Positions 12,191 to 27,356 of a stretch of DNA of 64,000 nucleotides are shown in pieces. Position 1 is the first letter of the stretch; each line of letters starts with the position of its first letter. The position numbers and the translations under genes are program-made. Origin of the DNA: an uncultured Acidobacteriota bacterium (GTDB taxonomy: Bacteria; Acidobacteriota; Vicinamibacteria; Vicinamibacterales; UBA2999); contig CADEDM010000001.1 in assembly GCA_902826065.1 (NCBI GenBank), positions 23,340-87,339 on the forward strand, given 5' to 3'. A model generated the notes under the pieces. The model made no database searches and was not told the DNA's origin. It saw only the letters and a list, made by a program, of their open reading frames with translations.

Positions 12191-13096
12191 TTGAGCAGAA
12201 TCGATCAAGCCCTGGAGCGACACCTGCGCGGCGGCCGCGCGCCGCTCGCGCCGCCAGTGCAGAAGGAGTTCACGTCCGCGTGGTCGCCCGACGAAGTCGG
12301 CGTCGCCGCGGCGAACCAGCCCGCCGCCGCCGCCGACGCCGTCGCGGTCGCCCCGGAGCCGGCGCGCCCGCGCGCCAGCAACTTCGAGACGATGGGCCGG
12401 CGCGAGCCCAACGGCAACGCCATGGTCACGCTGTCATCGGCCTGGCGGGAACGCCTTGCCGACGGCCGCAACGCTGATCCGACCCTGCTCGAACAGTTCC
12501 GACAGCTGGCCGGCACGCTATTCCACCTGCAGCGCGCCAACAATCTCCGCAGCGTCATGGTGACTAGTGCGACCCCCGGCGACGGCAAGACGCTCGTCTC
12601 CGTCAACCTGGCGCTGGTGCTCGCCGAGTCGTACCGGGCGCGCGTGCTGCTGGTCGACGCCGACCTGCGCAAGCCGTCGATTCCGGCGGTGCTGCCGATA
12701 GCCGATGGGGTCGGCCTGAGCGATGCGCTGCGCGCGGAGAACGACGCGCCGCTGGCGCTGATTCAGCTGACGCCGACCCTCACGCTGCTGCCTGCCGGCC
12801 AGCCCATTCCCAACTCGCTCGAGGCCCTGACGTCGCCACGCATGCGCTCGATCATGAGCGAGGCCGTCGAGCGTTTCGACTGGGTGGTCCTGGACGCCGG
12901 CCCGATCGGCCCCACCACCGACCCCCGCGTGCTCACGACCCTGGTCGACGGCGCCGTCTTCGTCGTGCGCGCGGGCGTTACCCAGTTCGATGACGTGCAG
13001 AAGGGCATCGAGGCGCTGGGCCGCGATCACCTGCTGGGCATCGTGCTCAACGGGGTGGATGGCGCGAGCGCCACGCCCTACTACGGAACGCGATAG
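12191..13096 (+). CDS. BY-kinase-like P-loop ATPase (exopolysaccharide/PEP-CTERM-locus tyrosine autokinase type)
   Basis: TTG start. N-terminus SRIDQALER. Walker A VMVTSATPGDGKTLVSVNLA, A' LLVDADLRKP, Walker B DWVVLDAGP. The C-terminus contains YY. Confidence 0.8.
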   Translation: MSRIDQALERHLRGGRAPLAPPVQKEFTSAWSPDEVGVAAANQPAAAADAVAVAPEPARPRASNFETMGRREPNGNAMVTLSSAWRERLADGRNADPTLLEQFRQLAGTLFHLQRANNLRSVMVTSATPGDGKTLVSVNLALVLAESYRARVLLVDADLRKPSIPAVLPIADGVGLSDALRAENDAPLALIQLTPTLTLLPAGQPIPNSLEALTSPRMRSIMSEAVERFDWVVLDAGPIGPTTDPRVLTTLVDGAVFVVRAGVTQFDDVQKGIEALGRDHLLGIVLNGVDGASATPYYGTR

Positions 13097-13116
13097 CCCG
13101 CGGGGCTGGAACTCGC

Positions 13117-14490
13117 ATGAATCGCGTCGTCAGTGCTCGTCGGGCCATTCTTGTCGCCGTCGAGCACGCCCTCATCGTCGCCGCGCAGCTGGGCGCCGCC
13201 GCGCTGGCCGGCGTTGGCGAAGCGCCGCTGCAGACCATGGTTCCCCGTGCCGTGCTGGTGGCGGCGGTGCTGCAGGTCAGCCTGCACTACTTCGACCTGT
13301 ACGAGGTCCGCACGCTCACCGACCGTCGCAACGCGTTCGCCGGCGTGCTGAGCGCGCTGGGCGTGACGTCGGCGCTGCTCGCCATCGTCTACTGGTGGAT
13401 GCCGAGCCTGATCATCGGCCGCGCCGTCTTCGTCCTTGCGTCGGTGCCGATCATCGCCGCCGTCGTCGGCTGGCGGCTCGCCTTCCAGTGGCTCTCTACC
13501 AGGGGCGGCCCCACCGAGCGCCTGCTGATCGTCGGCACGAATCCGGCCGCGGTGAACCTGGCCCGCGAGCTGCTCGATCGCCGCAGCGAGCTCGGCATCG
13601 ACCCGATCGGCTTCGTCGACAGCGATCCGTCGACGGTGGGCCGGCAGCTGCTCGGCACCGGCGTCCTGGGCGTGGTCAGCGATATTCCGTCGATCGTCCG
13701 CTCGCGCCAGGTCGATCGCGTCGTCGTCAGCCTGGCCGACGCCCGCGGCAAGCTGAACATGGACGAACTGGTGTTCATGAAGCTGAACCAGGGCGTGCGG
13801 TTCGATCACCTGGCGTCGGTGTACGAGGAGTACACCGGGAAGATCGCCGTCGAGAACCTTCGACCGAGCTGGGTGATCTTCTCCGAGGGCTTCCGGAAGA
13901 CGCAGCTGCTGACGCTCTCGAAGCGCGCGTCCGACGTGCTGCTCTCGTCGGTGGCGCTGGCCCTGGCCGCGCCGATCATGGCCGTGGTGGCCATGGCCGT
14001 GCGCTACACGTCGCCAGGCCCGGTACTCTACCGTCAGTCGCGCGTCGGCAAGGACGGGCAGCTCTTCACCATCATGAAGTTCCGGTCGATGCGCGAGGAC
14101 GCCGAGGCCGCGACCGGCGCCGTGTGGGCAACGCTTCGCGACCCGCGCGTGACGCCGCTCGGACGCCTGCTCCGCCGCAGCCGTCTCGACGAGCTGCCGC
14201 AGCTGTTGAATGTGTTGCGCGGCGAGATGAGTTTCGTCGGTCCGCGTCCCGAGCGCCCGGAGTTCGTCGATGGGCTGACGCAGCAGATCAAGTTCTACGG
14301 CCAGCGCCACGTCGTGCGCCCCGGCCTGACGGGTTGGGCCCAGGTGCGGCATCGCTACGGCGCCTCGGTGGAAGACGCGCAGGAGAAGCTGCAGTACGAC
14401 CTGTTCTACATCAAGCACCTGTCGCTGTGGTTCGACGCGTTCATCCTCGCCGAGACGGTCAAAACCGTCCTCATGCGCCGCGGGTCGTAG
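13117..14490 (+). CDS. Priming undecaprenyl-phosphate sugar phosphotransferase (Bac_transf; TIGR03013/EpsB-like)
   Basis: 457 aa. Four N-terminal TM helices and a central Rossmann-like domain. C-terminal catalytic domain: SKRASDVLLSSVALALAAPIM...MKFRSMREDAE...LDELPQLLNVLRGEMSFVGPRPERPEF. Confidence 0.9.
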   Translation: MNRVVSARRAILVAVEHALIVAAQLGAAALAGVGEAPLQTMVPRAVLVAAVLQVSLHYFDLYEVRTLTDRRNAFAGVLSALGVTSALLAIVYWWMPSLIIGRAVFVLASVPIIAAVVGWRLAFQWLSTRGGPTERLLIVGTNPAAVNLARELLDRRSELGIDPIGFVDSDPSTVGRQLLGTGVLGVVSDIPSIVRSRQVDRVVVSLADARGKLNMDELVFMKLNQGVRFDHLASVYEEYTGKIAVENLRPSWVIFSEGFRKTQLLTLSKRASDVLLSSVALALAAPIMAVVAMAVRYTSPGPVLYRQSRVGKDGQLFTIMKFRSMREDAEAATGAVWATLRDPRVTPLGRLLRRSRLDELPQLLNVLRGEMSFVGPRPERPEFVDGLTQQIKFYGQRHVVRPGLTGWAQVRHRYGASVEDAQEKLQYDLFYIKHLSLWFDAFILAETVKTVLMRRGS

Positions 14491-14492
14491 TC

Positions 14493-15362
14493 ATGGCGAT
14501 CCTGAACGCTCTCACCGTCGACGTGGAGGACTACTTCCACGTCTCGGCCTTCGCCGCCGACGTCAAGCGCCACCATTGGGAGGCGCTCGAGAGCCGCGTC
14601 TGCGCGAACACCGATCGGTTGCTCGACATCTTCAGTGAGGCCGGCGTCACTGGCACGTTCTTCGTGCTGGGATGGGTGGCGGAACGCTTTCCCGCGCTGG
14701 TGCGGCGCATCCAGGCCGGCGGCCACGAGATCGCGTCGCACAGCTACGCCCACGAGCTGGTCTACGACTTGACCCCGGAGCAGTTTCGCGACGACCTGCG
14801 GCGGGCCGCACGCGTGCTCGAAGACGCCGCCGGAGTCGCCGTACGCGGCTATCGCGCGCCCAGCTACTCGATCACGGAGCCGTCGCTCTGGGCGTTCGAC
14901 GTGCTGGTGAGCGAGGGCTACACCTTCGACTCGAGCGTCTATCCGATTCGCCACGATCGCTACGGCATTCCCGACTTCGAACGGCTGCCGCACCGCCTCG
15001 AGCGGCACGGCGGCGAACTCTGGGAGTTGCCGGGGTCGACGGTGCGCCGTCTCGGGATGAACCTGCCGATCGGCGGCGGCGGGTACTTCCGCCAGTTTCC
15101 GTATGCGTGGACGCGCGCCGGGATCCGCGCGCTCAACGACGGCGAACAGCAGCCCGCCGTCTTCTACCTGCACCCCTGGGAGATCGACCCTGACCAGCCA
15201 CGCATGCACGGCAGCGCGTTGTCGCGGTTCCGGCACTATCGAAACCTCGACAAGACCGAAGCCCGTCTCCGGCGCCTGCTCGCGGATTTCGCCTTCGCCC
15301 CGATCGCCGACGTGCTGCGGACGCGGCAGGGCGCGGCGGCGCGGCGCGAGGCCGTGAACTGA
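14493..15362 (+). CDS. Polysaccharide deacetylase (CE4 + DUF3473; XrtA-locus subfamily type)
   Basis: MAILNALTVDVEDYFHVSAF...TFFVLGWVAERFPALVRRIQAGGHEIASHSYAHE...YRAPSYSI...FYLHPWEIDPDQP. This is only the last 289 codons of the 790-aa track ORF 12990-15362. The upstream part of that ORF is out of frame with the sugar transferase and Arg-rich. Confidence 0.9.
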   Translation: MAILNALTVDVEDYFHVSAFAADVKRHHWEALESRVCANTDRLLDIFSEAGVTGTFFVLGWVAERFPALVRRIQAGGHEIASHSYAHELVYDLTPEQFRDDLRRAARVLEDAAGVAVRGYRAPSYSITEPSLWAFDVLVSEGYTFDSSVYPIRHDRYGIPDFERLPHRLERHGGELWELPGSTVRRLGMNLPIGGGGYFRQFPYAWTRAGIRALNDGEQQPAVFYLHPWEIDPDQPRMHGSALSRFRHYRNLDKTEARLRRLLADFAFAPIADVLRTRQGAAARREAVN

Positions 15363-15372
15363 GGCCGGTCGC

Positions 15373-18300
15373 ATGTCACGCCACGTCGCATCCACAGATA
15401 TCGCCATCATCGGCATGGCGTGCCGCGTCCCTGGCGCGCCCAGCTACGGCGCTATGTGGCGCCTGCTGGCCGAGGGCCGCGAAGGCCGGACGACCCTCGA
15501 CGACGAGGCGCTGCGCCAGGCCGGTGAGCCCGAGGCGCTGTTCGCGGATCCGGCCTACGTCAAGGCCGGCATGTTCCTCGACGGCGTCCGCCTGTTCGAC
15601 CCCGGGTTCTTCGGCTTCAGTCCGCTCGACGCCCGCGTGCTCGACCCGCAGCACCGCCAGTTCCTCGAGTGCGCCTGGGAGGCCTTCGAGGATGCCGGCG
15701 TCGACCCGGGCCGCCAGCCGGGCACGATCGGCGTGTTCGCCGGTTCAGGACAGCACCTGTACTACGCGCAGCACCTGCTGACCAACGAGACGCTGGTCGA
15801 TCAGGTGGGCCGCTTCCTGCTGCGCCACACCGGCAACGACAAGGATTTCCTCGCCACCCGCGTCTCTTACTGCTTCGACCTGCGCGGGCCCAGCATCAAC
15901 CTGCAGACCGCATGCTCGACGTCGCTCGTCGCCGTGCACACGGCGATGCAGAGCCTGCTCAACGGCGAGTGCGACGTGGCGCTCGCCGGAGCGGTGACCA
16001 TCGAGCTGCCGGATCGCGTCGGCTACCTGTACCGGCCGAGTGAGATCCTCTCGCCCGACGGCCACTGCCGGCCGTTCGATGCCAGCGCCGGTGGCACGCT
16101 CTTCGGCAGCGGCGTCGCGATCGTCGTGCTGAAGAAGGCGGCGCAGGCGGTCGCGGACGGCGATCACATCCACGCGCTGATCAAGGGGTCGGCCGTCAAC
16201 AACGACGGGTCCGGCAAGGTGAGCTACCTCGCGCCGAGCGTGGACGGCCAGGCGGACGCCATCGCCGAGGCACTGGCGATGGCGGAGGTCGAGCCCGACA
16301 GCGTGAGCTACGTCGAGGCACACGGCACCGGCACCCAGCTCGGCGACCCCATCGAGGTGGCTGCGCTGTCGCAGGCTTACGGCCGCGATTCGGCCACTGC
16401 CGCGCCGTGCGGCCTCGGCTCGATCAAGTCGAACATCGGCCATCTCGACACGGCGGCTGGCACGGCCGGCCTCATCAAGCTGGCGCTTGCGCTGCAGCAC
16501 CGCACGCTGCCGCCGACGCTGCACTACACGGCGCTGAACCCGGCGATCGATCCCGCCCAGACCTCGTTCCGCGTGGTCGACCACCTGCGGCCATGGACCG
16601 GACCGTCGCCCCTGCGCGCCGGACTCAGTTCGCTTGGCGTCGGCGGCACCAACGCGCATCTCGTCGTCGAAGAGGCGCCGCCCACCGCGCCGGACGGCAC
16701 GGCGCGCGACCGGCAGCTCCTGGTGCTGTCGGCGCGCTCGAGGCCCTCGCTCGAACGTGCTCGCCAGGCCTTGGCCGCGCGCCTCGACGGTGTCGAGGCC
16801 TCGGCCCCGCGCCTGGCCGACATTGCCTACACGCTGGCCACCGGCCGGCGCGCGTTCAAGCACCGCGCGAGCCTGGTCGCTGCGGCGCCGCTCGAAGCCG
16901 CCGATCTGCTGTCGGCGCGCGAATCGGACCAGGTGGTCGTCGGCGAGACGGCAGAACAGGGACGCCGTGTGGCGTTCACGTTCGCCGGTGGCGGCGCGCA
17001 GCATCCCGGCATGGGCAAGGAGCTCTACGCCCACGAGCCGGCGTTCCGCGCCGCTCTCGACCGATGTCTGTCCGCACTCACGCGCCACACCGACTTCGAT
17101 CTCAAGCCGCTGCTCTTCCCGGCGACAGCGGAGGCCCGGCAGCACGCCGCGGCCGCGCTCGAACGTCCGAGCCGGGCGCTTCCGGCGCTGTTCTCGATGC
17201 AGTACGCCCAGGCGACCTTGTGGCGCGCGTGGGGCATCGAGCCCCACGCGTTCATCGGCCACAGCATGGGCGAGAACACGGCGGCCTGTCTCGCCGGCGT
17301 GATGGAGCTCGACGATGCGCTCGGCCTCGTGGCCTTGCGCGGCCGCCTCTTCGAACGTGTGGCGCCCGGAGCGATGCTGAGCGTGGAACTCGACGAAGCG
17401 GCCCTGGGGCCTTGGCTGGCGCCCGGGCTCGACGTCGCGGCCGTGAACGCGCCGGGCCTCACCGTCATCTCCGGTCCCGCGGCCGACGTCCGTCGTCTCC
17501 AGGAGCGGCTCGAAGCCGCGAACATCGGCTGCCAGCGCATCCGCATCGAAGTGGCCGCACACTCATCGATGCTCGAGCCGATTCTCGCCGACTTCCGCGC
17601 CTACCTGCGCTCCTTGCCGCTGTCGGCTCCCGCGACGCCCTTCATCTCCAACGTCACCGGCCGCTGGATTGAGCCGGGCGAAGCGACAGATCCCGAGTAC
17701 TGGGTGCGCCACCTCCGGCAGACCGTGCGTTTCGCCGACGGCGTCGGCCAGCTACTGCGCGACGGGCCGCCGGTGCTGCTGGAAGTAGGCCCGGGCCGTA
17801 CCCTCACGAGCCTGGCGTCACTGCATTCCGACAAGACCGCGCACCACGTGGTCCTGACGTCGATGCCGCGGGCTGACGAAGAGGCCAACGACCTGTCGCA
17901 CATGATGGGCGCGCTCGGCCGCCTGTGGGTCAATGGCGTCGATCCCGACTGGACGCGCTTCTACGAGGGCCAGCAGCGGAAGAAGCAGCCGCTGCCGACC
18001 TACTCGTTCGACCATGCCGAGTACTGGATCGACCGTAGCACCGCATCCACCGGCCGCGCGGGCGACGCGCGAGGCCAGGCCGGCGTCTACGAGCCGGTGT
18101 GGCGTCCGGCCGCGCCGCGCCCGTCGTTCGAAGCTCCTGGCGCCTGCGTCCTCGTCCTCGACGACGACCGCGACCGGCTGCGGAGCTTCGAGACGGCCCT
18201 CGTCCGCGCTGGCGCCGCGGTGCGTCTGGTCCTGGCGTCCGACCGGTGCCTCGTTGAGGGCACCGGCCCGTGCGAACTGCGCACCGGTGTGCCCGACGAC

Positions 18301-21051
18301 TATCTGCGCGTGCTCGACGCGTGCCGCGCGGCGGGCTCCACCCCCAGTCACGTGATTCACGCGCTGGGATTGGGTGCAGCGACCGGCATCGACGCCGGCC
18401 ATCACGTCGACGCGGTGCGGCGCTGCTTCGACAGCCAGTTCTTCCTGGCCCAGGCGATCGCGTCGGGCGATGCCACGCCCGTGCACTGGCTCGCGCTCTC
18501 CCACCGCGCCTGGCAGGTCGGCGGCGAGGCGCCGTGGTCGCCCTATGGCGCGCTGGCCGTGGGCATCACGAACACCTTGCCACGCGAGTTCCCCTCGTGG
18601 CTCGCCCGTGTCGTCGACGTCGAGAACCCGCGGCTCGCGGCCGAGTCGATCGACAAGATCCTGGCCGAGATGCCACAGGTGGCGGATGCCACGGTCGACG
18701 AGCCAGTGGTGGCGCACCGCGGACGGCAGCGATTCGTGCGCGACTGGCTGCGGCAGGATGCGCCCGCAGCGCTACCAAGCGTGTTGCTGCGGCCCCATGG
18801 CGTCTATCTCGTCACCGGCGGCACCGGCGGACTCGGTCTGGTGGCCGCCGGCGTGCTGGCGCAGGCAGCGCCCGCTACGCTGGTGCTGGTGTCGCGTCGC
18901 CCGTGGCCGCACCGCCAGCACTGGGACGAGCTGATTCGGCGCGGCGCGCCCGAGGCCGAGTCGCTCAACGCGCTGCTCGCGCTCGAACAGAAGGGTGCCC
19001 GTGTCGTCCTCGAAACTGCGGACATCGCCGACGCGACGTCGGTCGAGGCCGTCGTCTCCCGGACGCGACAGACCTGCGGCGCGCTGCACGGGGTCATCCA
19101 TGCCGCCGGCATCGTCGACGACGCGCCCCTGATCGCGAAGGACCTGGCGCACGCGCATCTGGTGCTGGCCCCCAAGGTCGCCGGCACGACCGCCCTCGCC
19201 AGGGCCCTGGCCTCCGCGTCGCTGGACTTCTTCGTCCTGTACTCTTCCTCGAGCGCATTCGCCGGGCTGCCGGGCCAGGCCGACTACGCCGCCGCCAACG
19301 CCTTCCTCGACGGTTTCGCCGCCTGGGCGCGCGAGCAGGGCCTGCCCTGCGTCGCCGTCGACTGGCCGGCGTGGCGTGGCACTGGACTCGCCGCCGCCAT
19401 CAGCCGTGGTGCCGCCGTGCGCCCGGCACCCGGGCGTCCCACCGACCACCCGATGCTCGGCCGATGCACGGTCGACGAGGCCGGACGTCGTGCCTTCCTG
19501 ACGCAGGTCAGCGCCGAGGACTCGTGGATGATTCGCGAGCATCGTCTCAAGGACGGCCCGGCGCTCATGCCGGGGTTCGGCTTCCTCGAGATGGCTCGGG
19601 CCGCATGGTTCGAAGGCCGTCCGGCGGGACCGTTCGAGCTGGCCGATACCTCGGTCGACTATCCGTTCATCGTCCAGGACCAGGCCCCGCGCTGGCTCGG
19701 CGTCGAGCTCTCGCCGGCATCGAACGCGTTCGTCGTGGTCAGCGAGGACGGCGACGGTCGCACGGAGCACGTCCGTGGCACTGTGCGGGACGCCTCGCCG
19801 CTCGCCGCGCGCCTCGATGTCGCTGCAATCCGGCAGCGCTGCGCGCGTGGCGTACAGCGTTTCGACGACGCCGACCACCACCCGTTCCTCCAGTTCGGCC
19901 CGCGCTGGGCGTCGCTGAAGACGGTGGCCTATGGCACGCACGAAGCGCTGATCGATCTGGATCTGGCGCCGGAGTTTCGCGCCGATCTCGACGCCTACGT
20001 GCTCCATCCGGCGCTGCTCGACATGGCCGCCGCCGGGGCCCAGGTGATCATCGAAGGCCATACGCCCACCGACGAAGTGTTCGTGCCGGTGGGCCTCGGC
20101 CGCCTGCGCGCCACCGCCGGATTCCCGTCGCGGTGTCTCAGCCACGTCACGTACAAGCCCGGCCCGGCTGGCGAGTCGCGAGAGGTAGCGCACTTCGACG
20201 TGCGCGTCGCCGACGCCGACGGTACCGTCTTCCTCGAGATCGACCACTTCGCCATGCGCCGCCTGCCCGGCACAGACGCGCTGCGGCGGCTGCCGGCGGC
20301 GGGGTCGCGCGCGATCGCCCCGACGCTCGAGCGCGCGCTCGAACTCGGCATCGACCCGGGGGAAGGGGCACGTGTGCTCGCGACGGTGCTGGCCGGCGTC
20401 ACGAGCGCGCAAGTCGCAGTGGCGCCGGTGGAGCCGCGCGTGCTCGTCCGCGAACTGCGGCAGGCGGCGGCCCCGCCGGCGCCAGCACGAGAGGTCATCG
20501 CGTTCGATCCCGACGACGATCCGGCGATTGCGCCGGCCGAGACCGTGCTCACCGCGTGCCCTGCTGTCGCGGCGGCGGTCGTCCGCTCGTTCCATGGCGA
20601 TGGCGCGACCCGGCGTCTCGTGGCCTTCTTCGTGCCCGACCACGACCACTTCGTGACGCAGGGCGAGGTGCGGCGCTACGCGCGCGAACATCTCCCCGCC
20701 GGCCAGGTCCTGACGCAACTCATCGAGCTCGACGAGCTGCCGCGCAACGGCACCGGCGTCGACCGCCGCGCGCTGCACGACCCGTCGGCGCCGGTGACCC
20801 GCATCGTCCCGCCCCGCACCACCGTCGAGAAAGCCGTCGCCCGGGTGTGGCAGGACGCGCTCGGAGTGGATGCCGTGGGCCTCACCGACAACTTCTTCGA
20901 CCTCGGGGGCCACTCGCTCCTGTCGGCGAGGATCATCGTGCAGCTCGATCGCAAGTTCGGGGTGCGCCTCAACCAGGCGACGATGGCGCTGGGCACGCTC
21001 GAGCAGATCGCGCGCGACATCGAGCGGCGCACCGAGGACAGCCCGAAGTGA
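15373..21051 (+). CDS. Type I polyketide synthase, KS-AT-KR-DH-(vestigial A-domain C-terminal subdomain)-PCP; no TE
   Basis: 1892 aa. See the domain features below. All catalytic motifs of KS, AT, KR and DH can be read directly from the translation. Confidence 0.95.
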   Translation: MSRHVASTDIAIIGMACRVPGAPSYGAMWRLLAEGREGRTTLDDEALRQAGEPEALFADPAYVKAGMFLDGVRLFDPGFFGFSPLDARVLDPQHRQFLECAWEAFEDAGVDPGRQPGTIGVFAGSGQHLYYAQHLLTNETLVDQVGRFLLRHTGNDKDFLATRVSYCFDLRGPSINLQTACSTSLVAVHTAMQSLLNGECDVALAGAVTIELPDRVGYLYRPSEILSPDGHCRPFDASAGGTLFGSGVAIVVLKKAAQAVADGDHIHALIKGSAVNNDGSGKVSYLAPSVDGQADAIAEALAMAEVEPDSVSYVEAHGTGTQLGDPIEVAALSQAYGRDSATAAPCGLGSIKSNIGHLDTAAGTAGLIKLALALQHRTLPPTLHYTALNPAIDPAQTSFRVVDHLRPWTGPSPLRAGLSSLGVGGTNAHLVVEEAPPTAPDGTARDRQLLVLSARSRPSLERARQALAARLDGVEASAPRLADIAYTLATGRRAFKHRASLVAAAPLEAADLLSARESDQVVVGETAEQGRRVAFTFAGGGAQHPGMGKELYAHEPAFRAALDRCLSALTRHTDFDLKPLLFPATAEARQHAAAALERPSRALPALFSMQYAQATLWRAWGIEPHAFIGHSMGENTAACLAGVMELDDALGLVALRGRLFERVAPGAMLSVELDEAALGPWLAPGLDVAAVNAPGLTVISGPAADVRRLQERLEAANIGCQRIRIEVAAHSSMLEPILADFRAYLRSLPLSAPATPFISNVTGRWIEPGEATDPEYWVRHLRQTVRFADGVGQLLRDGPPVLLEVGPGRTLTSLASLHSDKTAHHVVLTSMPRADEEANDLSHMMGALGRLWVNGVDPDWTRFYEGQQRKKQPLPTYSFDHAEYWIDRSTASTGRAGDARGQAGVYEPVWRPAAPRPSFEAPGACVLVLDDDRDRLRSFETALVRAGAAVRLVLASDRCLVEGTGPCELRTGVPDDYLRVLDACRAAGSTPSHVIHALGLGAATGIDAGHHVDAVRRCFDSQFFLAQAIASGDATPVHWLALSHRAWQVGGEAPWSPYGALAVGITNTLPREFPSWLARVVDVENPRLAAESIDKILAEMPQVADATVDEPVVAHRGRQRFVRDWLRQDAPAALPSVLLRPHGVYLVTGGTGGLGLVAAGVLAQAAPATLVLVSRRPWPHRQHWDELIRRGAPEAESLNALLALEQKGARVVLETADIADATSVEAVVSRTRQTCGALHGVIHAAGIVDDAPLIAKDLAHAHLVLAPKVAGTTALARALASASLDFFVLYSSSSAFAGLPGQADYAAANAFLDGFAAWAREQGLPCVAVDWPAWRGTGLAAAISRGAAVRPAPGRPTDHPMLGRCTVDEAGRRAFLTQVSAEDSWMIREHRLKDGPALMPGFGFLEMARAAWFEGRPAGPFELADTSVDYPFIVQDQAPRWLGVELSPASNAFVVVSEDGDGRTEHVRGTVRDASPLAARLDVAAIRQRCARGVQRFDDADHHPFLQFGPRWASLKTVAYGTHEALIDLDLAPEFRADLDAYVLHPALLDMAAAGAQVIIEGHTPTDEVFVPVGLGRLRATAGFPSRCLSHVTYKPGPAGESREVAHFDVRVADADGTVFLEIDHFAMRRLPGTDALRRLPAAGSRAIAPTLERALELGIDPGEGARVLATVLAGVTSAQVAVAPVEPRVLVRELRQAAAPPAPAREVIAFDPDDDPAIAPAETVLTACPAVAAAVVRSFHGDGATRRLVAFFVPDHDHFVTQGEVRRYAREHLPAGQVLTQLIELDELPRNGTGVDRRALHDPSAPVTRIVPPRTTVEKAVARVWQDALGVDAVGLTDNFFDLGGHSLLSARIIVQLDRKFGVRLNQATMALGTLEQIARDIERRTEDSPK
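15397..16675 (+). other. PKS ketosynthase domain
   Basis: DIAIIGMACRVPGA; active-site Cys in QTACSTSLVA (codon 15913-15915); EAHGTGTQLGDPIE; KSNIGHLDTAAG; ends GGTNAHLVVEE. Confidence 0.9.
16969..17818 (+). other. PKS acyltransferase domain
   Basis: VAFTFAGGGAQHPGMG; nucleophile elbow FIGHSMGE (Ser codon 17263-17265). The specificity motif reads VAAHS, neither a clear HAFH nor YASH, so the substrate is not called. Confidence 0.85.
18796..19380 (+). other. PKS ketoreductase catalytic subdomain (structural subdomain lies upstream from about 18130)
   Basis: HGVYLVTGGTGGLGLV Rossmann motif; SSSSAFAGLPGQADYAAANAFLD (catalytic Tyr). Confidence 0.85.
19447..20290 (+). other. PKS dehydratase (double hot-dog) domain located AFTER the KR
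   Basis: HPMLGRC...IREHRLKDGPALMPGFGFLEMA (catalytic His), LQFGPRWASL, LHPALLDMAAAGAQ (catalytic Asp motif). Confidence 0.8.
20491..20780 (+). other. Vestigial adenylation-domain C-terminal subdomain (A8-A10 region only)
   Basis: RRLVAFFVPDHDHFVTQGEVRRYAREHLPAGQVLTQLIELDELPRNGTGVDRRAL. The A10 Lys is replaced (NGTGVDRR versus NGKLDRR in the neighbouring NRPS). No A1-A7 core lies upstream of it. Confidence 0.65.
20812..21030 (+). other. NRPS-type carrier (PCP/thiolation) domain of the PKS
   Basis: VARVWQDALGVDAVGLTDNFFDLGGHSLLSARI; phosphopantetheinyl Ser codon 20914-20916. Confidence 0.85.
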
Positions 21052-21833
21052 ACCCCCTCTTCTTCGGACCCGCGGACTCGCCGCTCTACGGCGTGCACCA
21101 GCCGCCCCAGATCGCGGGCAACGGTGGCGGCGTCGTGCTGTGCTATCCGTTCGGCCAGGAGTACATGCGGGCCCACCGCGCCTGCCGGCAGCTCTCGCTG
21201 CTGCTGGCCCGGCGCGGCTTCCACGTGCTCCGCTTCGACTACCGCGGCACCGGCGACTCGAGTGGCGACATCGACGACGCCGGCGTCGAGCGCTGGGTCG
21301 ACGATGCGGGCGCGGCTATCGACGAGCTGCGCGAACTGAGCGGCCTGTCACAGGTCTCGGTGATCGGGCTCCGGCTCGGCGCGTGGTTCGCGGCCCGGGC
21401 CACCGAGCGGCGCACCGACGTCGACCGGCTCGTCGTCTGGGATCCGATCGTCGACGGCGCCGCCTACCTCGAGGAGATTCGCGGGGAAGTCGCCGCCGAG
21501 GTGCCGACCAGCTACAGCCCGCCGTCGGGCAGCCGGGTGTTCGCCGACGGCACGATCCACTACAACGGGTTCGAGATCCCCGCACGCCTGGCCGGTGAGC
21601 TGTCACGCCTGCGGCTGGACGCGACCGTGCCCGCGTCGGCGCGGCGCGTGCTGCAACTCGTCTCGCACGAGGTCCCGGCGTTCCTGCGGTTGCGCGATGC
21701 TTGGCGCGCGCATCCCGCCTACCGGTATCAGTTCACGCCGGCTCCGCACGACTGGAACTTCGTCGACGAGTTCGGCGGGATTCTGCTGCCGCAGCCGGCG
21801 ATTCAGGCGATCGTCGAGTGGATGAGCGAGTGA
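21048..21833 (+). CDS. Alpha/beta hydrolase fold protein, 'exosortase-system hydrolase 2'-like (copy B)
   Basis: GTG start in a GTGA overlap with the PKS stop (21048-21051). VNPLFFGPADSPLYGVHQPP...VVLCYPFGQEYMRAHRACRQLSLLLARRGFHVLRFDYRGTGDSSG...VVWDPIVDGAAYL. It appears in the track only as the tail of the artefactual 1187-aa ORF 18270-21833. Confidence 0.8.
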   Translation: MNPLFFGPADSPLYGVHQPPQIAGNGGGVVLCYPFGQEYMRAHRACRQLSLLLARRGFHVLRFDYRGTGDSSGDIDDAGVERWVDDAGAAIDELRELSGLSQVSVIGLRLGAWFAARATERRTDVDRLVVWDPIVDGAAYLEEIRGEVAAEVPTSYSPPSGSRVFADGTIHYNGFEIPARLAGELSRLRLDATVPASARRVLQLVSHEVPAFLRLRDAWRAHPAYRYQFTPAPHDWNFVDEFGGILLPQPAIQAIVEWMSE

Positions 21834-21840
21834 GCGAGCG

Positions 21841-22689
21841 ATGAGAGAACGCGTGCTTCGCATCGGGCGGCCGACGCCCCTGGCCAGCGTCGCCACCGAG
21901 CCCGACGCCTTCGACGCGTCGAAGCCGGCCGTGCTGATCCTGAACTCGGGAGTGCTGCACCACATCGGGTCGTGCCGGATGTCGGTACGGCTGGCGCGCC
22001 GGCTGGCGGAACGCGGCCTGCTCGCCGTGCGCTTCGACTTCTCGGGCCTCGGCGACAGCGAGCCGCGCCTGGCGACGCCGAGCTTCGAAGAAGTGTCGGT
22101 GACCGAGTCCACGGAGGTGATGGACCTGCTGCAGCGCACACGCGGCGTGCAGTCGTTCATCCTCTACGGCCTCTGCTCCGGCGCCGACGGCTCGTACAAC
22201 ACCGCGCTGCGCGATCCACGCGTCGTGGGGATCAGCCAGTTCGACCCGTACTGCTACGTGACCCCCCGTTACTACCTGCGGTACTACCTGCAGGCGGCGC
22301 GTGATCCGCGCCGGTGGCGCAGCGTGGCGACGCGCGCACTGAAGACCCTGTTCGGCCGAGAGACCGCGCCGCAGACGACGGTCGAGTCGGAGTTCGTGGA
22401 GTTGCCCAGCTACGTCCGCGTCTTCCCATCGCGGGAGTCGATTGCCGCCGGCCTGGCGGCGCTCGTGCAGCGCGGCGTGCACGTGCAGGCGAACTTCCCG
22501 CGCGGACCGCTGTACAACCACCGGTCGCAGTTCGTCGACAGCTTTCGCGACGTCGACTTCCGCGGCCTGGTCGAGGTCAACTACTACGGTGACGCGAATC
22601 ACATCGTGACGCAGCCCGTCCTGCAGGGCCGCATCATCGACGGCGTCGCCGACTGGGCCGCGCGCGTGGCCATGGGCGGTGCGCGATGA
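21841..22689 (+). CDS. Alpha/beta hydrolase, 'exosortase-system hydrolase 1'-like (copy B)
   Basis: PAVLILNSGVLHHIGSCRMSVRLARRLAERGLLAVRFDFSGLGDSEP...FILYGLCSGADGSY (Cys codon 22174-22176 at the nucleophile elbow). Confidence 0.8.
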   Translation: MRERVLRIGRPTPLASVATEPDAFDASKPAVLILNSGVLHHIGSCRMSVRLARRLAERGLLAVRFDFSGLGDSEPRLATPSFEEVSVTESTEVMDLLQRTRGVQSFILYGLCSGADGSYNTALRDPRVVGISQFDPYCYVTPRYYLRYYLQAARDPRRWRSVATRALKTLFGRETAPQTTVESEFVELPSYVRVFPSRESIAAGLAALVQRGVHVQANFPRGPLYNHRSQFVDSFRDVDFRGLVEVNYYGDANHIVTQPVLQGRIIDGVADWAARVAMGGAR

Positions 22690-25600
22690 CGTCCGAGACA
22701 CCGCCGATGTCCTCTGCGCTCACGGTCCTGGTCGTTGGCGATCAATCGCTGACGATCGAATGCAGCGAGATCCTGCGCGCTGCCGGGCACACCATCACCG
22801 CGGTCGTGACCGGTGACGCCCGCGTCCGCCGCTGGTCCGAGGAGCGCGGCGTGGCGGCCCTGCCCGACGCGCAGACCGCCCTCGACAGCCCATCCGCCGC
22901 GGCGTTCGACTACCTGCTGTCGATCGCCAACCTGAAGCTGCTGCCGCCGGCGCTGGTCAGCCGTGCGCGGTTCGGCGCCGTCAACTTCCACGACGGCCCG
23001 CTGCCGCGCTACGCCGGTCTCAACGCGCCGGCGTGGGCGCTCATGGCCGGTGAGCAGCAGCACGGCATCACCTGGCACGTGATGACCGACGAGGTCGATG
23101 CCGGCGACGTGCTGCTCGAGCGCGCCGTGGCCGTCGACGACGATGACACCTCGTTCACGCTGAATGCGCGCTGCTACGAGGTCGGCATCCAGTCGTTCGC
23201 GGAGCTCGTGCCCCGCCTGGCCTCACGGTCGGCCGCCGGCGCGCCGCAGGACCTGTCGCTGCGCACGTATTTCGCCCGGGCGGAGCGGCCGCGCGGCCTG
23301 GCCACCCTCGACTGGCGGCAGCCCGCCGCGCATCTCGACCGGGTCGTGCGTGCGCTCGACTTCGGGCCGTATCGCAATCCACTGGCCGTGCCCAAGGTGT
23401 GGGTCGGCTCGCGGCTCCTGGTGGCACGCCGGAGCCAGGTACTCGAAACGGGCGACGCGGCTACGCCAGGGACGATCAAAGAAGTTGGCGAACGGCGTCT
23501 CGTCGTGGCCTGCGCGCAGGGCGCCCTGGCGTTGAGCGACCTCACCGACATGAGCGGCGCCGCCGTGGACGTCCGCGCGGTGGCCGCGGCGGAAGGGCTG
23601 CGTGTGGGCAGTCGCCTGCCGGTGTCCGACGACGCACGCCTCGACGCGGTCGACCGCCTCGCCGCTCAGATTGCGCCGCACGACGGCCGGTTCCGGGCGC
23701 TCATGCGGCGCTTCACGCCCACCGAGGCGCCGGCGGCCGGCGCCGAATCGACCGTGCGCACCTGGCACGAGTGGGACGGCCGCACCGCCAGACCGGACAC
23801 GTTGCTCGCCGCGATCGTCCTGGTGCTGGCGCGCATCACTCAGTCGCCGGCGCTGGCGTTCGGCTTCGTACCGTCGTCGCGCGCAGTGCTGGACGGACAC
23901 CTGCGCGCCTACGTGCACGACGTCGTGCCCGTCGAGATCGCGTGCGCCGATGCAGACGCGGTGGCGGAGCTCGCCGCGCGCGTGGCGGCGGCCGCCGCCC
24001 ACGCCGAGACCGCGGTGGGCATGTCGCGCGACCTGTTGCTTCGTGAAGGCGCGGCCGCGGCGCTCGAGTCGCCCGACCGCGCGCCGATCCGCGTCGTGCG
24101 CGCCACGGGGCTCCTCCCCGATACGGCGCGTGCCGCCGCCGGCGCGGCCGTGATGACGTTCCAGGTGACCGACGACGGGCGCATGGGCTTGCTGGTGGAT
24201 GCGGGGCTGGTGTCCCCAGACATCGCCCGCGAGATTCTCGCGTCGATCGGCCAGGTCGTACCGGTGGTCGAGGACGGCCTCGGACGCGTCGCCGACGTCG
24301 ACCTGCTCACGCGCGATCAGCGCGAGCGCCTGATGGAGTGGGCGAGGGGTGACGCGCCCGACGGCGTCGCGCCGCTTCCCGACGTCTGCGTCCACGAGCT
24401 GTTCGAGGCCCAGGTCGCCCGCTCGCCCGGCCATGTGGCCTGCGTCTGCCGCGGCCAGGAGCTGACCTACGCGGATCTGAACCAGGCGGCCAACCGCCTC
24501 GCCCGCCACCTGCGCACCTCGGGCGTCGGCACCGGTGACCGCGTCGGCGTCATGGTCGACCGGTCGCTGGAGATGGTGGTCGTGCTCTACGCGGTGCACA
24601 AGGCCGGCGCGGCCTACGTGCCGCTCGACCCGAAGTACCCGTCGGAGCGTCTCGGGTTGGTGCTCGCCGGCGCCGACGTCCGTTGTCTCGTCGTGCGTGT
24701 GGCCACTTCCGGCGTCGACGCCGCCATCCCGCAGGTCGTCCTCGAGGACGTGTGGCCGCGGCTCGCCGAACTGGCGCCAGACAACCTTGGCGCCCTGGCC
24801 ACGCCCGACGATCTCGCCTACGTCATTTACACCTCCGGCTCGTCGGGCACTCCGAAGGGCGTGATGGTCGAGCACCGCAACGTGGTGAACTTCTTCGCTG
24901 GAATGGACCGGCGGATCGACCGCACGCCAGGCACGTGGCTCGCCGTGACCAGCATCTCGTTCGACATCTCGGTGCTCGAGCTGTTCTGGACGCTGGCCAG
25001 GGGCTTCACCGTCGTCCTGCATGCCGATGGGCCCGCGAGCGCCTCGCTCGTCGTGCCGCAGGCGGCGCGCGCCAAGGGCATCGAGTTCGGGCTGTTCTAC
25101 TGGAACGTCGCCTCACCCGACAGCGACCACGCGCAGGAGAAATACCGGCTGCTGCTCGAGAGCGCGAAATACGCCGACGCGAACGGCTTCACCGCCGTGT
25201 GGACGCCGGAGCGCCACTTCGCGTCATTCGGCGGTCTCTACCCGAATCCGGCTGTCACGTCAGCGGCGCTCGCCATGGTCACGAGCCGCGTGGCCCTGCG
25301 CGCCGGCAGTTGCGTCGTGCCGCTGCATCACCCGATCCGGATCGCCGAGGAATGGGCGGTCGTCGACAACCTCTCGGGCGGCCGCGTCGGCATGTCGGTG
25401 GCGTCGGGCTGGGCCACGCCAGATTTCGCGATTCGCCCCGAGGCCTTCGAAGGGTCGAAGCGCCTGCTGTTCGAGAACACGGCGATCGTGAAGCGGCTCT
25501 GGCGCGGCGAGACCGTGGAGTTCCCGGGACCGAAGGGGCCGGTGCAGGTGCGCACCCTGCCGCGGCCGCTCCAGAAAGAGCTCCCCGTCTGGGTGACGAC

Positions 25601-27356
25601 CGCGGGCAACGTCGAGACCTTCGTGTCGGCAGGCCGCATGGGCGCCAACCTGCTGACCCACCTGCTCGGCCAGACCGTCGAGGAAGTGGCGGAGAAGGTC
25701 GCCGCCTACCGCGCGGCTTGGCGCGACGCCGGGCACGCGGGGCGTGGCATCGTGACGCTGATGCTCCACACGTTCGTGGGCCCCGACCCTGACGAGGTCG
25801 AGCGCATCGTGCGCGGACCGATGAAGGAGTATCTGCGCAGCGCCGCCAACCTGGTCAAGGCCGCCGCCTGGCAGTTCCCGACGTTCAAGCGCCTGTCGGA
25901 CGAACAGGGCAAGACCCTCGACGATTTCTTCAACACGATCGCCGAGGACGACATGGATGCCCTGCTGGAGTTCGCATTCCAGCGCTACTTCCGCACGAGC
26001 GGTCTGTTCGGCACCGTCGAGGAGTGCCAGGCGATGGTGGGGCGCGTCGACGGGGCCGACATCGACGAGATCGCGTGCCTGATCGACTACGGCATCGACA
26101 CCGACGTCGTGCTCGAGCATCTGCCGTACCTGAACGCTCTGCGCGAGTCGGTGCAGGCGCGTGGCGACGATCGCCGCCACTCCCTCGCCGGCCTGCTCGG
26201 CAGCGGCGTCATCACACACTTCCAGTGCACGCCGTCGATGGCGCGGATGGTGCTCGCAGAGCCGGCCGCGACCGTGGCTCTTGGCGAGCTCCGCGAGGTC
26301 CTAGTCGGAGGGGAAGCGTTGCCCCCCGACGTCGCCGACGCCCTCGCGACGGCGGCGCCGGGGCGCGTGACCAACGTCTATGGCCCGACCGAGACGACCG
26401 TCTGGTCGGCGGCCAGCCGCGTCAGTCCTGGCGGCGGCGCGGTGCCGATCGGCACGCCGTTGCTGAACCAGCAGCTCTACGTGCTCGATAGCGTGGGCCG
26501 GCCGCTGCCGCCTGGCGTACCTGGCGAGCTCGTCATCGGCGGCATGGGAGTCACGCGCGGCTACTGGAACCTCGACGCCAGCACGCGTGAGCGTTTCGTG
26601 GCGGACACTCTGTCGCCACGTCCCGCAGCGCGGATGTATCGCACCGGCGATCGTGGGCGCGTGCGGCCGGATGGGCAGTTCGAGTGTCTCGGGCGGCTCG
26701 ACCAGCAGGTCAAGATCCGCGGCTACCGCGTCGAGCCCGGCGAGATCGAGGCGCGGCTGTGCGAACATGCCGGCATCGCCGAAGCGGCCGTGATGCTGCG
26801 CGAGGATCGTCCGGGCGACCAGCGTCTGGTCGCCTACGTGCGCCCGGCCCCGAGCCAGCGACCGGCACCTGACGACGTTCGCCGCCATGCCGCCGAGCGC
26901 CTGCCCGAGTACATGGTGCCGTCGATGGTCGTCGTGCTCGACCAGATGCCGCGGACACCGAACGGCAAGCTCGACCGTCGCGCGTTGCCCGCACCGGACT
27001 CGGTGACGGCGCCCGCGGCGCCCGCGGCGTCCGCGAGCGCTGCGACGCTGTCGACGGGCGTCTCGGAGCCGCTCGTGACCGAAGTCTGGGAACACGCGCT
27101 CGGTGTGCCGGTGCGTGGCCGCCAGGACAACTTCTTCGATCTCGGCGGGCACTCGCTGCTCGTCGTCCAGGTTCTGGCTGAGCTCCGCAAGCGAGTCAAG
27201 AAGCCGCTTGCGCTGACCGATCTCTTCAAGTACACCACGGTGGAGAGTTTGGCCGCGTTCATCGACGGTCAGCAGGTGTCGACGCGAACTCAGGCCGGAG
27301 CCCGGGCGAGTCGACGGCGCGACGCGCTCGCGCGGAGGGAACGCGCGTTCGAATGA
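22686..27356 (+). CDS. NRPS-like initiation protein: N-formyltransferase, C-domain-like remnant, adenylation domain interrupted by a luciferase-like monooxygenase, then PCP; no TE
   Basis: 1556 aa. ATGA overlap with the upstream hydrolase (22686-22689). See the domain features below. Confidence 0.95.
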   Translation: MTSETPPMSSALTVLVVGDQSLTIECSEILRAAGHTITAVVTGDARVRRWSEERGVAALPDAQTALDSPSAAAFDYLLSIANLKLLPPALVSRARFGAVNFHDGPLPRYAGLNAPAWALMAGEQQHGITWHVMTDEVDAGDVLLERAVAVDDDDTSFTLNARCYEVGIQSFAELVPRLASRSAAGAPQDLSLRTYFARAERPRGLATLDWRQPAAHLDRVVRALDFGPYRNPLAVPKVWVGSRLLVARRSQVLETGDAATPGTIKEVGERRLVVACAQGALALSDLTDMSGAAVDVRAVAAAEGLRVGSRLPVSDDARLDAVDRLAAQIAPHDGRFRALMRRFTPTEAPAAGAESTVRTWHEWDGRTARPDTLLAAIVLVLARITQSPALAFGFVPSSRAVLDGHLRAYVHDVVPVEIACADADAVAELAARVAAAAAHAETAVGMSRDLLLREGAAAALESPDRAPIRVVRATGLLPDTARAAAGAAVMTFQVTDDGRMGLLVDAGLVSPDIAREILASIGQVVPVVEDGLGRVADVDLLTRDQRERLMEWARGDAPDGVAPLPDVCVHELFEAQVARSPGHVACVCRGQELTYADLNQAANRLARHLRTSGVGTGDRVGVMVDRSLEMVVVLYAVHKAGAAYVPLDPKYPSERLGLVLAGADVRCLVVRVATSGVDAAIPQVVLEDVWPRLAELAPDNLGALATPDDLAYVIYTSGSSGTPKGVMVEHRNVVNFFAGMDRRIDRTPGTWLAVTSISFDISVLELFWTLARGFTVVLHADGPASASLVVPQAARAKGIEFGLFYWNVASPDSDHAQEKYRLLLESAKYADANGFTAVWTPERHFASFGGLYPNPAVTSAALAMVTSRVALRAGSCVVPLHHPIRIAEEWAVVDNLSGGRVGMSVASGWATPDFAIRPEAFEGSKRLLFENTAIVKRLWRGETVEFPGPKGPVQVRTLPRPLQKELPVWVTTAGNVETFVSAGRMGANLLTHLLGQTVEEVAEKVAAYRAAWRDAGHAGRGIVTLMLHTFVGPDPDEVERIVRGPMKEYLRSAANLVKAAAWQFPTFKRLSDEQGKTLDDFFNTIAEDDMDALLEFAFQRYFRTSGLFGTVEECQAMVGRVDGADIDEIACLIDYGIDTDVVLEHLPYLNALRESVQARGDDRRHSLAGLLGSGVITHFQCTPSMARMVLAEPAATVALGELREVLVGGEALPPDVADALATAAPGRVTNVYGPTETTVWSAASRVSPGGGAVPIGTPLLNQQLYVLDSVGRPLPPGVPGELVIGGMGVTRGYWNLDASTRERFVADTLSPRPAARMYRTGDRGRVRPDGQFECLGRLDQQVKIRGYRVEPGEIEARLCEHAGIAEAAVMLREDRPGDQRLVAYVRPAPSQRPAPDDVRRHAAERLPEYMVPSMVVVLDQMPRTPNGKLDRRALPAPDSVTAPAAPAASASAATLSTGVSEPLVTEVWEHALGVPVRGRQDNFFDLGGHSLLVVQVLAELRKRVKKPLALTDLFKYTTVESLAAFIDGQQVSTRTQAGARASRRRDALARRERAFE
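22719..23560 (+). other. Formyltransferase domain (Fmt/ArnA/LgrA-F-like; N- and C-subdomains)
   Basis: LTVLVVGDQSL...; catalytic Asn/His in AVNFHDGPLPRYAGLNA; Asp in HVMTDEVDAGDVLL; followed by a Formyl_trans_C-like beta-barrel (PKVWVGSRLLV...). Confidence 0.8.
24384..25035 (+). other. Adenylation domain, N-terminal portion (A1-A4)
   Basis: LTYADLNQAANRLARHL (A1), AVHKAGAAYVPLDP (A2), LAYVIYTSGSSGTPKGV (A3), SISFDISVLELF (A4; Asp235-equivalent present). Confidence 0.9.
25077..26160 (+). other. Luciferase-like monooxygenase (LLM/MOx) domain inserted between A4 and A5
   Basis: GIEFGLFYWN...YADANGFTAVWTPERHF...VVPLHHPIRIAEEWAVVDNLSGGRVGMSVASGW...VWVTTAGN.... Resembles the 'natural product biosynthesis LLM domain' (recalled as TIGR04020/MupA type). 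Confidence 0.8.
26217..26995 (+). other. Adenylation domain, C-terminal portion (A5-A10)
   Basis: NVYGPTETTVW (A5), GELVIGGMGVTRGYW (A6), YRTGDRGR (A7), KIRGYRVEPGEIE (A8), LPEYMVPS (A9), PRTPNGKLDRRAL (A10, Lys intact). Confidence 0.9.
27061..27270 (+). other. PCP/thiolation domain of the NRPS-like protein
   Basis: VTEVWEHALGVPVRGRQDNFFDLGGHSLLVVQV; Ser codon 27153-27155. Confidence 0.85.

Follow-up and report, generated by a model that had tools for sequence, protein, structure and literature searches.

In a window of 64,000 nucleotides from an uncultured Acidobacteriota bacterium (contig CADEDM010000001.1, positions 23,340 to 87,339; all coordinates below are those of the window), an open reading frame (ORF) at 15373-21051 (+) encodes a type I polyketide synthase (PKS) of 1892 amino acid residues. 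It is a single-module, ordinary modular cis-acyltransferase-type PKS with a rearranged back end. Its domains follow each other as ketosynthase (KS), acyltransferase (AT), structural subdomain of the ketoreductase (psiKR), catalytic ketoreductase (KR), dehydratase (DH), linker, a relic of the C-terminal subdomain of an adenylation (A) domain (A_sub), and a peptidyl carrier protein (PCP) of the kind used by non-ribosomal peptide synthetases (NRPS). The PKS serves as extension module in an NRPS-PKS cassette of four translationally coupled genes, in which it is followed by two alpha/beta proteins, hyd2 and hyd1, and by a loader, FT-A(LLM)-PCP, where FT is a formyltransferase and LLM a luciferase-like monooxygenase inserted in the A domain. 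The cassette sits in an XrtA/PEP-CTERM-type exopolysaccharide locus, and it is met again in polysaccharide loci of Acidobacteriota, Gemmatimonadota, Gamma-, Beta-, and Alphaproteobacteria, Myxococcota, and Verrucomicrobiota. Overall, the logic is that of NRPS-PKS hybrids in a variant form, and the system does not resemble those for polyunsaturated fatty acids (PUFA) or enediynes. The explanation that we favour by a modest degree is that an NRPS module lost its PCP, condensation (C) domain and A core, and that A_sub-PCP was kept as the recognition unit for off-loading in trans by hyd2 and hyd1.

The relic subdomain and its proposed release partners

GTDB species representatives were scanned with a profile of the DH-linker-A_sub region, and at the resulting 47 loci the parts of the cassette were mapped and the A_sub was scored with a hidden Markov model (HMM). 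The loci belong to Acidobacteriota, Gemmatimonadota, Gammaproteobacteria, Burkholderiales, Sphingomonas, Myxococcota, and Verrucomicrobiota, and they fall into two classes. In class 1 (29 loci and the window), the PKS ends in DH-linker-A_sub-PCP and, unless the contig stops there, hyd2 and hyd1 come next in every case. Class 2 comprises 17 loci, among them those of Caldimonas manganoxidans ATCC BAA-369 and of three Sphingomonas species; here the PKS ends in DH-linker-PCP-thioesterase (TE), a phosphopantetheinyl transferase (PPTase) gene is located nearby, and neither A_sub nor hyd2/hyd1 is present at any of the 17 loci. By the HMM, the A_sub is found in 30/30 PKSs followed by hyd2/hyd1 and in 0/17 ending in PCP-TE. 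At almost every locus, the FT-A(LLM)-PCP gene is adjacent. It lies directly upstream of the PKS gene in many of them and always in class 2, where the order of loader, extension module, and TE is colinear.

The cassette also occurs in locus L001, and three further hyd2 homologues (L051-L053), with 45-53% identity, all lie within such a cassette, one of them in Oceanicoccus sp. KOV_DT_Chl. In that strain (L052, 4188-9997), gene calling divides the orthologous PKS between two overlapping ORFs, one with the KS and the other with AT-KR-DH-PCP. Either the enzyme is naturally split, or a frameshift or sequencing error is responsible. Next come a second hyd pair, a gene for Acyl_transf_3, and one for A-PCP-KS-AT. 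Homologues of hyd2 number ~2900 overall. No description of the cassette was found in the literature searched, in which coverage of subscription journals was thin.

The relic A_sub occupies 20491-20793 (+) (residues ~1707-1807), and the PCP follows at 20833-21015 (+) (residues 1821-1881), with the carrier Ser1848 encoded at 20914-20916. In the Pfam scan, AMP-binding_C (PF13193) was detected at residues 1723-1795 with 28.8 bits (cut-off 24.5, E 2.5e-6), the PKS had no match to PF00501, which represents the A core with motifs A1-A7, and the distance from DH to PCP leaves space only for the linker and ~100 residues. Residues ~1722-1885 match contiguous A_sub-PCP didomains of solved NRPSs, namely LgrA (phmmer 4e-27), PvdL, TycA, McyA, and EntF. 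Residues 1648-1892 were modelled with AlphaFold2 from 20 orthologues, with a predicted local confidence (pLDDT) of 84 overall and >90 over A_sub and PCP. Foldseek aligned this model to the A-PCP didomains of DhbF (E 7e-12), LgrA, AB3403, EntF, and SrfA-C, and the A_sub taken by itself superposes on benzoate-CoA ligase, 4CL, and PheA with root mean square deviations of 1.5-2.1 Å over 80-90 residues.

The subdomain is intact in fold, yet stripped of its catalytic elements. It starts just past the A8 hinge, its A9 motif is degenerate (LPAGQVL), and it lacks the A10 lysine, reading NGTG-VDRRAL where the loader, the next-but-two gene, has TPNGKLDRRAL. The lysine is absent from all 30 A_sub-bearing members of the family, two of which have arginine in its place. 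The carrier motif is FFDLGGHSLL, with GGHSL as the NRPS signature, and the carrier finds its best matches in the PCPs of A-PCP didomains. The original prediction, made from the DNA sequence alone, had described a stretch of motifs A8-A10 without an A1-A7 core behind the DH, with the A10 lysine replaced and an NRPS-type carrier following, and had proposed a comparison with A_sub-PCP didomains. This description holds in every respect except that A8 itself is largely gone.

Two sources of the tail were considered and set aside. A copy of the adjacent loader gene is rejected, as the relic scores a mean of 42 bits against loader tails and 39 against other A domains. Derivation from the XrtA-associated acyl-CoA ligase (TIGR03098) is unsupported, since the NCBIfam models that match the PKS tail are those of NRPSs and not those of exosortase-set acyl-CoA ligases, and TIGR03098 is not among the matches.

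The gene for hyd2 (21048-21833 (+), 261 amino acid residues) has a GTG start that overlaps the PKS stop, and it is followed by hyd1 at 21841-22689 (+). The overlaps are 4 nt at both PKS/hyd2 and hyd1/loader, and 7 nt separate hyd2 from hyd1. Both proteins have an XrtA hydrolase as their best or only NCBIfam match, hydrolase 1 for hyd1 and hydrolase 2 for hyd2. In hyd2, the nucleophile elbow carries arginine: its GLRLG, invariant in 29 cassette copies, aligns with GLSMG of solved hydrolases, and the protein is probably a non-catalytic adaptor. In hyd1, GLCSGAD and His254 are invariant, and a cysteine nucleophile is indicated. Judged from these residues, a cysteine acyl-enzyme working with a partner that lacks a nucleophile is suggested, which fits acyl transfer better than simple hydrolysis; the residues of hyd1 suggest either such a transfer or an exchange of thioesters.

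Another hyd1/hyd2 pair, which has diverged to 32-34% identity with the first, is encoded at 7306-8103 (-) and 8139-8921 (-). It shows the same pattern, with GICSA in hyd1 and GAGLG in hyd2. Neither a ligase nor a carrier was detected adjoining this pair (7306-8921).

The origin of the tail is indicated by two hybrid relatives. P0150 (locus L050) reads KS-AT-KR-DH-PCP-C-A-PCP, and its terminal A domain is complete and has the lysine. P0148 (L049) reads KS-AT-KR-DH-relic-PCP-C-A-PCP; both are followed by hyd2 (GLRLG or GLRAG) and hyd1 (GLCSG or GLCRG). The mean score of class-1 A_sub-PCP is 128 bits against the terminal A-PCP of P0150, 113 against P0148, and 77 against the loader tail, and identity with the terminal A-PCP of P0150 is 36-46% over ~170 residues. 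These hybrids share the PKS front end and hyd2/hyd1 with the cassette, and their terminal A-PCP is the nearest relative of the relic. They differ from it in having a complete terminal A domain and a C domain, in lacking the FT-A(LLM)-PCP loader, and in not lying in a polysaccharide locus. An NRPS origin of the tail, for which a homologue retaining the full A domain had been proposed as a test, is thus borne out by P0150. In the favoured scheme, a terminal C-A-PCP module would have lost PCP-C-A(core), leaving A_sub-PCP joined to the DH. The relic would then have been retained because A_sub-PCP is the unit recognised by hyd2/hyd1, and the A_sub is absent where a TE in cis takes their place.

It is also possible that the A_sub is a neutral leftover or a spacer between DH and PCP, and that it co-occurs with hyd2/hyd1 by common descent of one recombination block (A_sub-PCP, hyd2, and hyd1). 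The relic is devoid of catalytic elements, class-2 enzymes work without the A_sub, and the internal relic of P0148 also speaks for this reading. We consider this unlikely, but not negligible. The A_sub has been kept in every cassette with hyd2/hyd1 across several phyla, and in class 1 it is conserved to the same degree as the DH (mean pairwise identity 0.39), more so than psiKR and the linkers (0.29-0.37). It is also modelled with confidence as an intact A_sub, and its closest relatives are full A-PCP termini served by hyd2/hyd1. In neighbour-joining trees of KS-AT-KR, rooted with bimodular PKSs (200 bootstraps), the TE class was never monophyletic, and L016 and L020, which have A_sub and hyd genes, lay inside the core TE clade in 199/200 bootstraps. 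Therefore, there was more than one exchange of the C-terminal release module, or it travelled as a block; despite this nesting the A_sub always went with hyd2/hyd1.

Several points weigh against the favoured explanation. The physical contact between A_sub and hyd2/hyd1 is one that we infer from sequence. Bootstrap support for the backbone of the trees is low, except for the nesting of L016 and L020, which leaves room for the neutral reading. The internal relic of P0148 precedes a PCP that feeds a C domain; thus a relic can persist where no docking of hyd proteins is expected. Both hyd proteins score under the cut-offs of their models (hyd1 65.9 against 168.45 for TIGR03100; hyd2 97.3 against 202.75 for TIGR03101). 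The extender of the PKS may not be malonyl-CoA, and the loader could supply this extender and not the starter. Finally, no exosortase was found among the window ORFs scanned, which are not all ORFs of the 64 kb, and one may lie outside. The relic had originally been proposed as a docking surface for the carrier; a docking surface is still plausible, but the evidence points to the release proteins acting in trans and not to the carrier itself.

The glycine loader and the predicted chemistry

The loader (22686-27356 (+), 1556 amino acid residues) was delineated by Pfam and NCBIfam models and by matches to solved structures as an ArnA/Fmt-like FT (22686-23585), a spacer, an A domain with a glycine code that is split by the LLM (25083-26144), and a PCP (27075-27263). 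The FT has two subdomains and is closest to ArnA/Fmt (81 bits for ArnA against 34 for the F domain of LgrA), with its Asn-His-Asp triad intact. In the A domain, AMP-binding is found at residues 573-784, the LLM at 800-1153, inserted after motif A4, and the rest of the A domain behind it. The LLM belongs to the MupA/Atu3671 family of luciferase-like monooxygenases (TIGR04020, 480 bits against 244). When it is excised, the best solved match of the A domain is the glycine module of LgrA with 319 bits (the valine module gives ~155 per half), followed by DhbF A1. The specificity code, extracted by motif anchoring, is DILQLGVVWK here. In 33 loci the orthologues have DILQMGMIWK, as most of them do, or a sequence close to it, and by the established Stachelhaus rules this is a glycine code.

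The spacer of 270 residues (residues 300-570, 23586-24395 (+)) gives a faint signal of the C-lobe of a condensation domain (E 0.057), which is faint in an orthologue too. It is possibly a second relic NRPS fragment of the cassette.

Two kinds of known modules resemble the loader. The F-A-PCP glycine loaders of oxazole polyketides are formylating NRPS initiation modules, and the initiation module of LgrA (F-A-PCP) likewise has an N-terminal FT with an intact triad fused to A-PCP; the A domain of the loader is nearest to that of the glycine module of LgrA. The loader differs from LgrA in its full two-subdomain ArnA/Fmt-like FT, in the long spacer between FT and A, and in the split of the A domain. 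In MtaG and MelG, too, a luciferase-like monooxygenase is inserted behind A4 of a glycine-specific A domain, and alpha-hydroxylation of glycine is ascribed to this group (PMC11411415). They are, however, terminal modules (C-A-MOX-A-T-TE), whereas here the split A domain belongs to a loading module that has an N-terminal FT, lacks a TE, and shows just a faint C-lobe signal, and no cleavage of the chain to an amide is implied.

The most likely course of synthesis would be as follows. The loader would activate glycine and N-formylate it on its own PCP, and the inserted monooxygenase may hydroxylate it. The KS would accept the formyl-glycine starter and join it to a malonyl-type unit loaded by the AT on the C-terminal PCP. 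One or more such extensions, with reduction by the KR, predicted to be of B-type, and dehydration by the DH, would lead to an alpha,beta-unsaturated gamma-(formyl)amino acyl thioester. An enoyl had already been put forward as the product and is plausible as a putative one. The chain would be captured by hyd1 on Cys112, with hyd2, which has no nucleophile, as an adaptor docking on the A_sub, and it would probably be handed to a sugar or polysaccharide acceptor.

The AT (16975-17943 (+), residues 535-857 by Pfam; GHSMG with Ser631, and Arg656) bears on the direction of this scheme. At the position of the 'YASH' motif it has VAAH, and at the 'RXR' position G-C-Q. Its best solved match is the AT of ZmaA (255 bits), whose motif is GAAH, so that xAAH is common to both. 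The basic residue associated with CoA-linked substrates or extenders (PMC4207774) is absent, and these two features together are the reason why the extender may be other than malonyl-CoA. FT-A(LLM)-PCP could accordingly supply a carrier-linked extender, which a ZmaA-like AT would move to the PKS carrier while the KS is primed by another acyl group, and an oxidase built into the A domain of the loader would suit such a role. We regard this as improbable. The code is that of glycine, and glycine without carboxylation gives no malonyl-type, decarboxylating extender; the cassette has neither FkbH- nor ZmaG-like genes; the colinear order of class 2 fits a starter role; and the invariant Arg656 implies a substrate with a free carboxylate.

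Far less probable still is direct aminoacylation of the PKS carrier, for which the relic A_sub would pair up in trans with the A core of the loader or of some other ligase. The geometry of the A_sub-PCP is indeed that of a didomain competent for thiolation, but the A8 hinge and the A10 lysine are missing, the loader has a complete A_sub and PCP of its own, and there is no free-standing A core in the cassette.

A modular core with the dehydratase behind the ketoreductase

The codon-position GC pattern of ORF 15373-21051 is that of a real gene. Its full-length orthologues (n=23) show 47-61% identity, and the nearest relative, from a metagenome-assembled genome of Vicinamibacterales, shows 59-74% identity per domain. 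By Pfam, the KS lies at 15397-16527 (+) (residues 9-385; Cys181, His317, and His357), and families of the KS-AT linker cover residues 389-515. Behind the AT, the psiKR without a DH extends over 18073-18798 (+) (~residues 901-1142) and the catalytic KR over 18799-19377 (+) (residues 1143-1335), with the GGxGGxG motif, Lys1268, Ser1292, Tyr1305, Asn1309, and VDD with Asp1250. The DH follows the KR at 19447-20271 (+) (residues 1359-1633; PKS_DH_N at 1359-1450 and PS-DH at 1481-1633; His1390 and Asp1550). A conserved helical linker, 'RALELGI...', which is common to the PCP-TE class, then spans 20305-20484 (+) (residues 1645-1704).

Across the alignment of the 23 orthologues, the KS triad of Cys181, His317, and His357, GHS631 and Arg656 of the AT, the NADPH motif of the KR with the KR residues named above, the DH residues His1390 and Asp1550, and the carrier Ser1848 are all invariant. 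The LDD-like Asp1250 would make the KR B-type, which is compatible with dehydration.

No DH was found between AT and KR in the Pfam scan of the PKS. The interval between them (240 residues from the post-AT linker to the KR) gives a weak match to the KR-associated family PF21394 (15.5 bits), a family that reaches 66.7 bits at this position in the homologue from Caldimonas, and PKS residues 5-1341 are collinear with module 1 of DEBS (EryAI 30-1324, E 2e-177). Therefore, the interval is the psiKR, as had been supposed from the start, and the order KS-AT-KR-DH first read from the sequence is right.

The DH is of the double-hotdog, modular PS-DH type, and its best solved relatives are the modular DHs of PksJ (3e-17), GphF DH1, and CurF/H/K. 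It had been described as complete; this is true of its catalytic residues, but its motifs deviate slightly from the common ones. The histidine motif is H-x4-G-x4-P (EHRxKDGPALxPG) and not H-x3-G-x4-P, one residue longer and invariant in the family, and alanine at Asp+4, where glutamine or histidine is usual, and glutamine at Asp+7 are likewise invariant family-wide.

Modules such as DEBS module 1 (KS-AT-KR-ACP, where ACP is an acyl carrier protein) thus share with this enzyme a collinear KS-AT-psiKR-KR and common catalytic residues. Modular cis-AT modules with a DH have it between AT and psiKR and end in a PKS-type ACP, whereas here the DH comes after the KR and a PCP stands behind a dead A_sub. 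The closest proteins outside the family, among 5.8 billion, are bimodular KS-AT-KR-ACP PKSs of ~3000 residues, with 40-45% identity over KS-AT-KR.

In the literature, the KR-DH pair is treated as specific to the enediyne synthases, PKSE (PMC9967187); the order is therefore unusual for an enzyme of modular type. ClbB is written as KS-AT-KR-DH-ER-T (ER, enoylreductase) in PMC5490422, which may be a notation of catalytic order. The KS-AT-KR-DH order holds across all relatives of the PKS. An exhaustive profile search of the representatives gave many proteins of 1900-2200 residues with the DH at ~residues 1360-1740, and the DH-linker-A_sub profile against a word-indexed database gave 3 proteins, including a stand-alone KR-DH-carrier protein.

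One of the relatives, P0186 from a metagenome, reads KS-AT-ER-psiKR-KR-DH-PCP-TE, with the ER in its canonical place, a C-A(LLM)-methyltransferase NRPS before it, and a PPTase after it. The DH behind the KR is therefore also found in a fully reducing module, and with a different A(LLM) loader.

The enediyne PKSE (KS-AT-ACP-KR-DH-PPTase) and PfaA, the PUFA synthase, do have the KR followed directly by the DH, as this PKS does. The resemblance ends there. In NCBIfam, the PKS scores 1028 bits with a modular type I PKS model, 658 with mycobacterial Pks2, and 358 with PfaA (TIGR02813), for which the cut-off is 1010, and there is no PfaA or PKSE chain among its 60 best solved matches, the best of which are modular or hybrid KS-AT structures and DEBS. 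By Pfam, it has no carrier between AT and KR, no tandem ACPs, and no C-terminal PPTase/ACPS domain, but a single PP-binding match at residues 1821-1881; KS, AT, and DH are modular by sequence. Among the window ORFs scanned, no partners of the pfaB/C/D type (chain length factor, FabA-type DHs, ER) and no enediyne accessory genes were found. Given in addition the canonical placement of the ER in P0186, the suggestion in the original prediction of an iterative PfaA/PKSE-like core, fused to the tail of an NRPS and making a polyene, is hardly credible in spite of the shared domain order. It is largely refuted, and it also fails by the criterion that had been set with it, a KS that groups with ordinary modular KS domains.

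The exopolysaccharide locus and wider meaning

Upstream of the PKS gene are genes for an XrtA-type chain-length determinant (267 bits), a tyrosine autokinase, an XrtA/PEP-CTERM sugar transferase (TIGR03013, 13117-14490 (+), 436.5 bits against a cut-off of 393.35), and an XrtA polysaccharide deacetylase (TIGR03006, ~14490-15362 (+), 391.7 bits against 276.2). An ORF of 790 residues called at 12990-15362 was rejected as a single gene, since codon-position GC and family matches resolve it into the sugar transferase, which is in another frame, and the deacetylase. Downstream and on the opposite strand are a PEP-CTERM-type export protein and an ATPase, and the region is flanked by glycosyltransferases and a flippase. 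The homologues of the chain-length determinant, tyrosine kinase, export protein, and ATPase score just below their NCBIfam cut-offs.

Farther downstream are genes for a sulfotransferase (38890-40014 (+)), a PEP-synthase/PPDK-like protein (43813-46947 (-)), a prenyltransferase (46356-47267 (-)), a fatty-acid CoA ligase family protein (48610-50214 (-)), and a NodU-like protein (50268-51755 (+)), which is probably a carbamoyltransferase. The ligase scores 322 bits to NF006754 and resembles olefin beta-lactone synthetase too. These genes may serve the decoration of the polysaccharide or a separate lipid pathway.

The setting invites a comparison with the XrtA accessory set, which consists of an acyl-CoA ligase (TIGR03098), an ACP, hydrolase 1 (TIGR03100), and hydrolase 2 (TIGR03101). 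In both, an alpha/beta pair stands beside the C-terminus of an adenylate-forming enzyme and a carrier, within an XrtA-type exopolysaccharide locus. In the cassette, however, the ligase is replaced by an NRPS-PKS line, the A_sub alone survives before the carrier, and the hyd scores are lower than the models demand. In a 2011 work by Craig, Cherry, and Brady, synthases of N-acyl amino acids are reportedly linked to PEP-CTERM systems. As a tentative and rather doubtful extension, A_sub-PCP with hyd2, a pseudo-hydrolase in which serine is changed to arginine, and hyd1 may form a hitherto unrecognised, general off-loading module of NRPSs and PKSs, homologous to the XrtA set of hydrolases 1 and 2, ligase, and ACP, in which the carrier would be recognised through the A_sub and the acyl group passed to an exopolysaccharide or a PEP-CTERM protein, and not to water.

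The order of KR and then DH is not confined to PKSE and PfaA but marks a sizeable uncharacterised clade of modular-type PKSs, KS-AT-(ER)-KR-DH-carrier, and this bears on the automated annotation of domains and modules and on structural models of reducing modules. The dead A_sub is a natural case of a subdomain free of catalysis that is conserved across phyla, with a testable reason for its survival, and cultured carriers of the cassette are available for experiments in Caldimonas manganoxidans ATCC BAA-369, the three Sphingomonas species, and Oceanicoccus sp. KOV_DT_Chl. The cassette ties NRPS/PKS chemistry to XrtA/PEP-CTERM-type exopolysaccharide loci and gives a handle on the unexplained hydrolase 1/2 genes. 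If the doubtful extension to a general off-loading module is true, the dead A_sub would be a dedicated docking domain, and the cassette would decorate an extracellular polysaccharide with a glycine-derived unsaturated acyl group.

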